NCBI RefSeq assembly: GCF_053078305.1
Contig: NZ_CP166875.1
Source: a plasmid
Direction: 5' to 3' (one strand)
Length of the DNA stretch: 64,000 bases
The translations under genes were made by a program, and so were the position numbers. Below the pieces are notes generated by a model. That model was not told where the DNA came from and did not search any database. It was given only the letters and a program-made list of their open reading frames with translations. Shown here one piece after another: positions 21,208-21,789 of this stretch. How positions within the stretch are numbered: position 1 is the first letter of the stretch; each line of letters begins with the position of its first letter.

Positions 21208-21789
21208 CTACCGGGCCTTCATACTCAGCCACCTCTGCTCTTTCGCCGCCAGCCAGCGCCTGGAATTTTGAGCATCACATTCCGATACTTCCCCCTCTGG
21301 TTGACCATCCAGGTTATAACGGGGAGTTCCTGCAACAGAGGTTCTCTGCAGGTAGATCCGGCGACTGGTAATGCAGGATACTGCACAATTCCATTCGTCC
21401 AGGGTCAGCGCTGTTTCCGGATGTGCTGCCAGATATGTAGTAATGTCACGGGTTATGCCTGTTTTCAGAGGCAGAAAACCGCCCCCTTCGGCACGAAGTT
21501 GAGGAAACAGCGCTTTCACCTTCTCCAGACAATCGTGAGTGAACTCACTGGTCCAGTGGGATGGTCTTGGAAAGCGTTGTCTTTTCTTTTTCTTCTTCCT
21601 GGCTGGCGCTTCGGGGATATGAGTTTCGACGGCAGGTGAACTGATTCCGGAGGAGACTGATTCTGTCGCCTGTTCAGTGAGTGCAGGCGCGATAACATCT
21701 TTTTTTTCGGCTAAGGAAGGCGGTGAAAAAGAGCGACGTTTTTTCACCACAATGACGGGATTTTTCTTTTCTTCCAGATCTTTTCCCAT
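21208..21789 (-). CDS. ProQ/FinO-domain RNA-binding protein
   Basis: C-terminal region aligns by eye to ProQ N-terminal domain (LPLKTGITRD...YLQRTSVAGTPRYNLDGQPEGEVSE); lysine-rich N-terminus. Confidence 0.6.
   Translation of the reverse strand: MGKDLEEKKNPVIVVKKRRSFSPPSLAEKKDVIAPALTEQATESVSSGISSPAVETHIPEAPARKKKKKRQRFPRPSHWTSEFTHDCLEKVKALFPQLRAEGGGFLPLKTGITRDITTYLAAHPETALTLDEWNCAVSCITSRRIYLQRTSVAGTPRYNLDGQPEGEVSECDAQNSRRWLAAKEQRWLSMKAR

Follow-up and report, generated by a model that had tools for sequence, protein, structure and literature searches.

A FopA-type FinO-domain protein gene on an F-type colicin plasmid of Escherichia coli, detached from the Inc/repZ control region

Among plasmid-encoded RNA-binding proteins with a FinO domain, FopA of pCol1B9 in Salmonella SL1344 is known to regulate the replication of the plasmid that encodes it by way of the antisense RNA Inc (PMC7491321). 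Roughly 200-400 copies of FopA are present per cell in stationary phase, and the reads recovered with it by RNA immunoprecipitation and sequencing are dominated by Inc, a cis-antisense RNA of ~70 nt directed at the repZ leader, with a few structured chromosomal RNAs, such as STnc1590, STnc700 and mgtM, also recovered (PMC7491321). Inc, the repZ leader and the Inc–repZ complex are each bound with a dissociation constant of ~1 μM; duplex formation between Inc and repZ is ~7-fold faster with FopA, and Inc/repZ and FopA are said to have an ‘equal phylogenetic distribution’ (PMC7491321). PcnR, from the IncI2 plasmids that carry mcr-1, represses copy number ~10-fold by binding a stem-loop of the leader directly, and when pcnR is deleted the IncI2 plasmid reaches a copy number about ten times as high (Yang et al. 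2021, PMC8053102). How such proteins recognize RNA is seen in the crystal structure of RocC with its ligand, in which the FinO domain reads the hairpin and 3′ nucleotide of an intrinsic terminator (PMC9674577). Here we describe a fopA-like (yafB-like) gene, lying on the minus strand at 21208..21789 of a 64-kb stretch of an E. coli plasmid (contig NZ_CP166875.1; hereafter the window), which encodes a FinO-domain protein of 193 amino acids.

The preliminary description of this DNA had given an open reading frame (ORF) at exactly these coordinates, which the ORF finder reproduced, and had proposed that its product contains a ProQ/FinO domain, with the C-terminal ~100 residues resembling the N-terminal domain of ProQ. 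Profile searching with PF04352, the check it had suggested, bears this out: ProQ/FINO is the single Pfam match, at residues 85-186 (21232..21537, minus strand), with an E value of 9.7e-12 and 45.3 bits against a gathering score of 27. A phmmer search of the PDB sequences likewise returned the ProQ N-terminal domain (5nb9, E 1.4e-4), together with RocC (7rgu, 7rgs and 7rgt, E ~3e-3). With a ten-member family profile the PDB matches were ProQ (1.8e-20), RocC (9e-16), Lpp1663 (1e-8) and NMB1681 (6e-4), the further match to FinO being by construction, as FinO sequences are inside the profile. The same profile, searched against the 828 stop-to-stop ORFs of at least 40 amino acids in the window, matched the fopA-like ORF only (E 3.5e-96).

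The predicted structure is in line with these matches. An AlphaFold2 model built from an alignment of ten diverse sequences, in place of one of six near-identical sequences that gave a predicted local distance difference test (pLDDT) score of 51 and was discarded, had block-mean pLDDT values of 93-98 at residues 81-193. When residues 80-193 of the model were compared with the PDB using Foldseek, all 26 matches of probability 1.00 (E up to 2e-3) were FinO-domain proteins, namely RocC, FinO, Lpp1663 and NMB1681, with the next match at E 1.9; RocC scored E 3e-7, with a template modelling score of 0.82 normalised to the target, and FinO (1dvo) scored E 4e-6. Residues P96, G111, I112, A136, T141, Y146, G154, R157, Y158 and G162 are invariant across FopA, the PcnR-type and IncFII(K)-type proteins and FinO. 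Profile, conserved residues and predicted fold thus agree in placing the protein in the FinO-domain family.

Within that family, we found the closest correspondence with FopA. The protein is 71-72% identical, over its full length and with no internal gaps, to FopA of IncI1/B/O and IncI-gamma plasmids, the references being E. coli alleles taken from PLSDB in place of pCol1B9 (HE654725) and R64 (AP005147), so that these values apply to the E. coli IncI homologues of the SL1344 protein. Tyr146 and Arg157, numbered as in the FopA paper, are invariant in the alignment of FopA-type proteins, and both positively charged stretches of FopA (KKRR and RKKKKKRxR) are kept. At least one tblastn homologue was found in 3218 of 72 556 plasmid records, mostly from Escherichia, Salmonella, Klebsiella and Shigella; 2167 of these 3218 fall at 60-80% identity and only eight at 90% or above. 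Proteins of the 60-80% class have their gene flanked by the rep-proximal toxin–antitoxin genes on one side and by yagA on the other, on plasmids of the IncI1/B/O and IncI-gamma/K types; this is where IncI plasmids have yafB, for which Gerovac et al. 2020 (PMC7491321) introduced the name FopA. On the strength of the gap-free identity, Tyr146 and Arg157 and both basic stretches, the alignments identify the window protein as a member of the FopA subfamily, which has already been described and is annotated generically in RefSeq; WP_044783647.1 of plasmid pFHI_NMBU_11_02 is 99.5% identical and is named ‘ProQ/FINO family protein’. This membership went unrecognised in the preliminary description.

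FopA and the window protein are of the same length class (200 amino acids in the IncI alleles compared with 193 here) and share the arrangement of a disordered arm with two basic stretches followed by a FinO domain, both without the N-terminal helix of FinO and without the C-terminal domain of ProQ. Beside both genes lies a divergent yagA, although in the window only its 5′ remnant is left and the gene is 14.4 kb from repA. The two proteins differ in that FopA is encoded on an I-complex plasmid with an Inc/repZ control region, whereas the window gene is on an F-type colicin plasmid (FinP/traJ, IncFII RepA/CopA) with no such region in the 64-kb window; moreover, the part encoding the FinO domain is only 67-77% identical in nucleotides, in a gene that is a mosaic, and the C-terminus is nine residues shorter owing to an amber codon.

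The arm carries two basic clusters. One, KKRR (residues 16-19; 21733..21744, minus strand), is invariant in the alignment of FopA-type homologues, and a second, ARKKKKKRQRF (residues 63-73; 21571..21603, minus strand), lies just N-terminal of the FinO domain, RKKKKKRQR being residues 64-72. The second cluster had been reported previously with the correct sequence, as part of a lysine-rich N-terminal extension; it sits in mid-protein, at the junction of arm and FinO domain, and not at the extreme N-terminus. Across the six closest homologues the surrounding AVETHIPEAPARKKKKKRxRFPRPSHWT does not vary, save that one residue of the lysine run is missing in one of them. The AlphaFold2 pLDDT is below 50 at residues 1-6 and 18-60, and residues 1 to ~70 are predicted to form a disordered arm.

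Other members of the family were considered and rejected as identities for the protein. The NCBIfam equivalog for ProQ, NF003434, gave 18.3 bits against a cut-off of 127, and the protein ends right behind its FinO domain, without the ProQ C-terminal domain. ProQ of E. coli and Salmonella and RocC of Legionella have the FinO domain in common with it, but these two are encoded on the chromosome; ProQ binds RNA globally and has a Tudor-like domain at its C-terminus, and RocC serves a trans-encoded small RNA (sRNA). Orthology with PcnR was rejected because identity to the IncI2 protein is only 35-38%. PcnR nevertheless belongs to the same clade of plasmid-encoded FinO-domain proteins and has the motif PVIVVKKRR in its N-terminal part, and its gene is near the rep gene of an antisense-controlled replicon, whose copy number it represses; it differs in binding the repR-leader stem-loop directly, independently of the antisense RNA.

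FinO, too, was rejected, as BLASTP similarity extends over 25 residues only (E 0.013). Like the window protein, FinO is plasmid-borne and has the FinO-domain fold, and it is a chaperone of a terminator-hairpin cis-antisense RNA, but its N-terminal region is different, its gene is found at the far end of the tra operon, and the RNA pair served is FinP/traJ. The window gene, in contrast, lies not after traX but in accessory DNA 37 kb upstream of traJ, in agreement with the earlier statement that it is far from the tra region: the traJ 5′ untranslated region (plus strand; Rfam RF00243, 124.7 bits) and FinP (minus strand; RF00107, 95.9 bits) are at 58753..58862. The presence of FinP and the traJ leader in the window, the domain common to both proteins and the finding that heterologous FinO-domain proteins can aid FinP–traJ pairing in vitro (PMC9977716) might together suggest a spare fertility inhibitor, substituting for FinO on the FinP/traJ of this F-type plasmid. 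We consider such a role very improbable, not only for want of significant similarity to FinO, but because related plasmids with this allele already carry finO after traX, the plasmid targets of FinO and FopA in Salmonella do not overlap (PMC9977716) and a pcnR deletion is not complemented by finO (PMC8053102).

The reading frame is intact from its ATG to its stop codon, both within 21208..21789, and a Shine–Dalgarno-like GAGG lies 7 nt 5′ of the ATG. A candidate sigma-70 promoter at 21895..21924 on the minus strand (CTGTCA-18-TACAAT) is weak, with nine of 12 consensus matches; the number of promoter sites found around the gene by a consensus scan is that of the shuffled background (4 against 3.1 ± 1.6 expected), and a terminator scan of the same surroundings gave nothing above the shuffled background. 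The frame closes with an amber TAG at 21208-21210, where codon 194 is CAG (Gln) in all six relatives translated, and translation through the stop reveals the in-frame remnant ENISEKSK* (21181..21210, minus strand). Other IncI-type fopA alleles are likewise full length, and IncF/IncZ-type alleles run to 201-202 amino acids. The amber codon therefore removes nine C-terminal residues, and since these fall outside the Pfam domain and belong to a tail that differs between the homologues, we expect from the alignments that the 193-residue protein would be functional.

In order to assess selection on the gene, the ratio of nonsynonymous to synonymous substitution (dN/dS) was calculated by the method of Nei and Gojobori. 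Over the whole gene it was 0.13 between the window and the allele of an IncFIA/FIB plasmid (16 synonymous and seven nonsynonymous substitutions). For codons 63-193 it was about 0.11-0.19 in three of four comparisons (the IncFIA/FIB-plasmid, IncI1 and pSTY-blaCTX-M-65 alleles), the fourth, with the allele of a plasmid of enterotoxigenic E. coli (ETEC), giving 0.49 on only 13 substitutions. The N-terminal 62 codons gave about 0.6 against the IncI1, ETEC and pSTY-blaCTX-M-65 alleles, a higher value that fits a disordered arm. As judged from these ratios, the gene is under purifying selection and, taken with the homologues in 3218 plasmid records, they put the ORF far beyond chance.

These data bear on the view that the gene is a decaying passenger, carried by recombination and becoming a pseudogene, with the amber codon as its first lesion. 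The substitution of TAG for the CAG of the relatives examined would agree with such a view, as would the transposons that separate the gene from any rep region and the truncation already suffered by the flanking yagA. The truncation of the protein, however, costs only the nine residues of the variable tail; the start codon, the Shine–Dalgarno-like motif and all the conserved residues are intact, and only three substitutions separate the gene from the IncZ-plasmid allele, so that decay seems to us scarcely credible as an explanation.

The gene reached its present position with a piece of I-complex backbone. Blastn comparison of window positions 1-36000 with selected plasmid loci showed pieces of such backbone scattered through F-plasmid and accessory DNA. 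The fopA block itself extends over 20930-22125; the others include a ribbon–helix–helix/ParE toxin–antitoxin pair at 8465-9036 (Pfam; 96% identical to IncI plasmids) and a run from the end of an immunity gene through DUF6404 and three hypothetical genes to an integrase at 28257-35215, split by a 3.8-kb Tn3-family element. Positions 21956-22347 match plasmid loci L002 and L003 across the start of yagA, at 87% by blastn and up to 95% in 60-nt windows, and the yagA 5′ remnant (22089..22347, plus strand), divergent from fopA, is at an end at 22347, where the similarity stops; IncI plasmids have the full yagA of 1347 bp.

The same fopA allele, at ~99% nucleotide identity (three substitutions in 579 nt), is present on two MPF_I plasmids, 3.6 kb downstream of rep, the gene order on both being rep, yacAB, a hypothetical gene, fopA and a YadA-like adhesin. 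CP027378, typed IncK2/Z, has an I-complex leader before rep, recognised by the Rfam PK-repZ model with 137.7 bits; pSTEC2018_607-a has CopB and CopA (101.3 bits) before rep, and its RepA is 94% identical to that of the window. IncZ plasmids combine an I-complex control region with an IncFII-like RepA, and this is directly evident here: the IncK2/Z-typed CP027378 and NZ_CP141225 are chimeras of a PK-repZ leader with an Inc-type RNA and an IncFII-family RepA. Because the IncK2/Z rep that follows a PK-repZ leader (CP027378, 1617-2653) belongs to the IncFII family, with DNA 87% identical to the window repA, the sequences indicate that an initiator gene common to these plasmids has had its control region exchanged.

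The gene is also a mosaic within itself. Compared with IncI1, its 5′ third (21588-21826) is 82-93% identical and the part encoding the FinO domain much less so, as given above; at synonymous sites the divergence from IncI1 rises from 0.20 (codons 1-62; 21588-21826) to 1.0 (codons 63-193; 21228-21587). The allele of the ETEC plasmid shows the reverse pattern. Because the two alleles diverge in opposite ways, the N-terminal arm and the FinO domain have, as far as the alignments tell, been shuffled between lineages by recombination.

The Rfam model RF01087 detects the PK-repZ leader on IncI1 and IncK2/Z plasmids, and CopA is the only RNA of the Inc class in the window. This CopA antisense RNA of an IncFII-type replicon (5784..5874, minus strand; RF00042, 98.9 bits) precedes repA1 (5947..6816, plus strand; PF02387, 90.4 bits), an initiator gene of the IncFII family whose leader CopA targets. 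The window CopA folds into two hairpins (−31.4 kcal/mol, z −4.0), and the Inc-type RNA of the IncK2/Z plasmid CP027378 into one long hairpin (−36.2 kcal/mol, z −5.5). Aligned with the Inc-type RNAs, stem-loop II of CopA shows the same CCCC...GGGG clamp and UAAUCUUUCU-type stem, the same CGCCAA motif in the loop and, behind the stem, a run of U residues. Several IncI records start at repA and so divide the Inc region at the record origin; the IncI1 Inc of this RNA alignment was accordingly pieced together manually from the two ends of NC_022371, with five A residues removed, and the intact Inc-type RNA of CP027378 is the safer comparator.

Gene position supplies the main reason for favouring a role in replication control with CopA as the ligand, because placement next to rep recurs across the clade. 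Its distant members are rep-adjacent whichever control RNA is present, on IncK2/Z with PK-repZ (39% identity) and on IncI2 (35-38%), and in an IncFII(K)-type KPC plasmid repA, preceded by CopB and CopA, is followed after 1.2 kb by a FinO-domain gene (31% identity). The last of these genes, at 2077-2640 of pCf-KPC (NZ_CP110778), is uncharacterised, and no study of an IncFII(K)-type FinO-domain protein was found in the literature searches made; about 360 Klebsiella plasmid records hold a homologue.

We therefore consider, with moderate confidence, that the window protein is a FopA-type replication-control RNA chaperone, that CopA is its likeliest ligand on this plasmid and that it would hold copy number down. 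By analogy with FopA and with the RocC–RNA crystal structure, the FinO domain (~80-190) would clamp the base of the terminator-like hairpin and the short 3′ U-tail of a structured cis-antisense RNA, and the basic arm would assist the exchange of strands. Kissing-loop pairing of the antisense RNA with the rep mRNA leader would be accelerated by the two together, and the faster pairing would keep the plasmid copy number down. The gene arrived with its piece of IncZ/IncI-like I-complex backbone but not with the Inc/repZ control region, and its ligand would now be CopA, the main hairpin of which is a homologue of Inc in sequence and structure. RNA binding by the window protein, the choice of CopA and the effect on copy number are what we infer, whereas the family, the fold, the conserved RNA-contact residues, the purifying selection, the origin of the gene and the absence of Inc/repZ follow from the analyses themselves.

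A number of observations weigh against this proposal. PK-repZ was not found by Rfam search in the 64-kb window, nor anywhere in the closest complete relative, pFHI_NMBU_11_02 (108.7 kb), on which a single CopA, FinP/traJ and two sok RNAs were found and where traX is followed by a finO. NZ_CP061340.1, an IncFIA/FIB plasmid encoding a 97%-identical FopA-like protein, has neither PK-repZ nor CopA and carries finO, and therefore the gene can persist without such an RNA in cis. Across the window and these two complete relatives, the FopA-like protein does not co-occur with Inc/repZ in the way reported for FopA. FopA was reported not to bind the transcripts of pSLT in SL1344 (review, PMC9977716). 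In the LT2 record of pSLT the CopA stems are almost identical to those of the window CopA, with differences mainly in the loop, so that CopA cannot be taken for granted as a ligand of a FopA-type protein. The gene is no longer rep-adjacent in the window, lying 14.4 kb from repA with transposons between, and the protein, at 193 amino acids, has been shortened by the amber codon. The setting is, in short, not the textbook one: an F-type plasmid, detachment from Inc/repZ and, in relatives, a classical FinO alongside.

Since the canonical Inc/repZ partner is absent here, action in trans is kept as the principal rival. The protein might be an orphaned but functional chaperone, acting on Inc/RNAI-type RNAs of co-resident I-complex plasmids, whose copy control it would tighten or disturb, or on host sRNAs and leaders; regulation of another plasmid or host RNA had been suggested in the preliminary description. 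The lack of PK-repZ in both the window and the closest complete plasmid is in keeping with this, as is the persistence of the 97%-identical allele, intact and with a dN/dS of 0.13 against the window, on NZ_CP061340.1, which has iteron replicons only; FopA, too, binds chromosomal RNAs (PMC7491321) and did not take pSLT transcripts (PMC9977716). Strain STEC17-183 has both a window-like F-type plasmid and an MPF_I plasmid with the same allele, and therefore such plasmids do meet in one cell. On the other hand, the selection signal is small and may predate the loss of the replicon, and the usual rep-adjacent placement of the gene across the clade points to a role in cis; we regard action in trans as a serious but rather unlikely explanation.

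The CopA region could also be addressed in another way, with the protein acting as a direct repressor in the manner of PcnR by binding a stem-loop of the repA leader (tap/CopT) and blocking leader-peptide translation without an antisense RNA. PcnR, the next characterised relative at 35-38% identity, works in this way and changes copy number ~10-fold (PMC8053102), and FopA also binds a repZ leader fragment at ~1 μM (PMC7491321). The window protein is, however, twice as close to FopA as to PcnR (72% compared with 38%), and it is chiefly the antisense RNA that FopA binds in vivo (PMC7491321), which makes direct repression improbable. Assistance to CopA remains the reading that we prefer.

Several further features of the window were recorded. 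The window is that of an E. coli F-type colicin plasmid which no single record matches throughout; separate stretches match plasmids of Shiga toxin-producing (STEC) and other E. coli at 97-99%, and the best match around the gene is pFHI_NMBU_11_02 (NZ_CP045714; IncFIA/FIC, MOBF, MPF_F), at 99.4% over 15467-28608. Two sok RNAs were found by Rfam. The Tn3-family element at 28608-32395 (resolvase 28780-29412, transposase 29393-32359) is an insertion in the DUF6404 region relative to pFHI_NMBU_11_02, with flanks that overlap by 7 bp, and a 1012-residue ORF between repA and fopA (11864-14902) is, judged from feature names, probably a second Tn3-family transposase.

The segment 9035-9269 is an inverted, 99.6% identical copy of the one that continues the fopA upstream block in pSTEC2018_607-a and CP027378, past the breakpoint at 22125 in the window, and the region upstream of yacA is present twice, at 7293-7663 and 9269-9668. 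This sequence arrangement indicates a rearrangement linking the rep-proximal region with the fopA locus. Between fopA and yagA, just upstream of the start of the yagA remnant, there is a perfect 11-bp tandem repeat, TTTACTTGCTG, of 3.4 copies (22025-22061); the region is 22 bp shorter in pFHI_NMBU_11_02, IncI1 and IncZ, so that the copy number of the repeat varies between plasmids.

Directly past the yagA remnant, in place of the yagA and colicin Ia of IncI plasmids, lies lipid-related cargo on the minus strand (22417-26000). This includes a 586-residue fusion of an alpha/beta-hydrolase with Methyltransf_20 (22635-24395) and, by the annotation of a 99% identical relative, a lysophospholipid acyltransferase, a phosphatidate cytidylyltransferase and a drug/metabolite transporter. 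A relative's annotation also assigns 15578-17575 (minus strand) to the nucleoside triphosphatase NudI, a deoxynucleoside kinase and a radical S-adenosylmethionine protein, a nucleotide-metabolism trio that is unusual as plasmid cargo and is possibly related to defence or modification. At the start of the window, where finO was sought and not found, 810-3339 (minus strand) has an ssb-like ORF (810-1337), an ORF that by eye is DUF1380-like and an antirestriction-like ORF (2695-3339). This is cargo of the leading-region type; beside the IncFII replicon it occupies the place taken in relatives by traX, finO and cirA, and a match to the antisense RNA AS-pc02 lies at 3428-3570.

Bacterial RNA biology has yet to explain how FinO-domain proteins choose a few RNA ligands among all the transcripts of a cell, and the plasmids compared here amount to a natural swap experiment, in which nearly the same protein is found beside an Inc-type RNA (IncK2/Z), beside a CopA-type RNA (pSTEC2018_607-a and the window) and with neither (the 97%-identical allele). 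Whether CopA is bound bears on whether the specificity of FopA lies in the architecture of hairpin, CGCCAA loop and U-tail or in something finer. If the protein is inactive here, a gene annotated as encoding a ‘ProQ/FINO family protein’ would be merely carried along by recombination. It is possible, though we put it forward only tentatively, that FopA-type chaperones are not tied to Inc/repZ, the present allele having been co-opted to CopA–CopT pairing once replication-control regions were swapped, or being kept on F-type virulence and colicin plasmids because it interferes in trans with the copy control of co-resident I-complex plasmids. Such interference would amount to RNA-chaperone cross-talk between plasmids, like that of FinO acting on RepX of pRSF1010, and binding to CopA, if true, would add an unrecognised protein layer to the control of copy number on IncF virulence and colicin plasmids.

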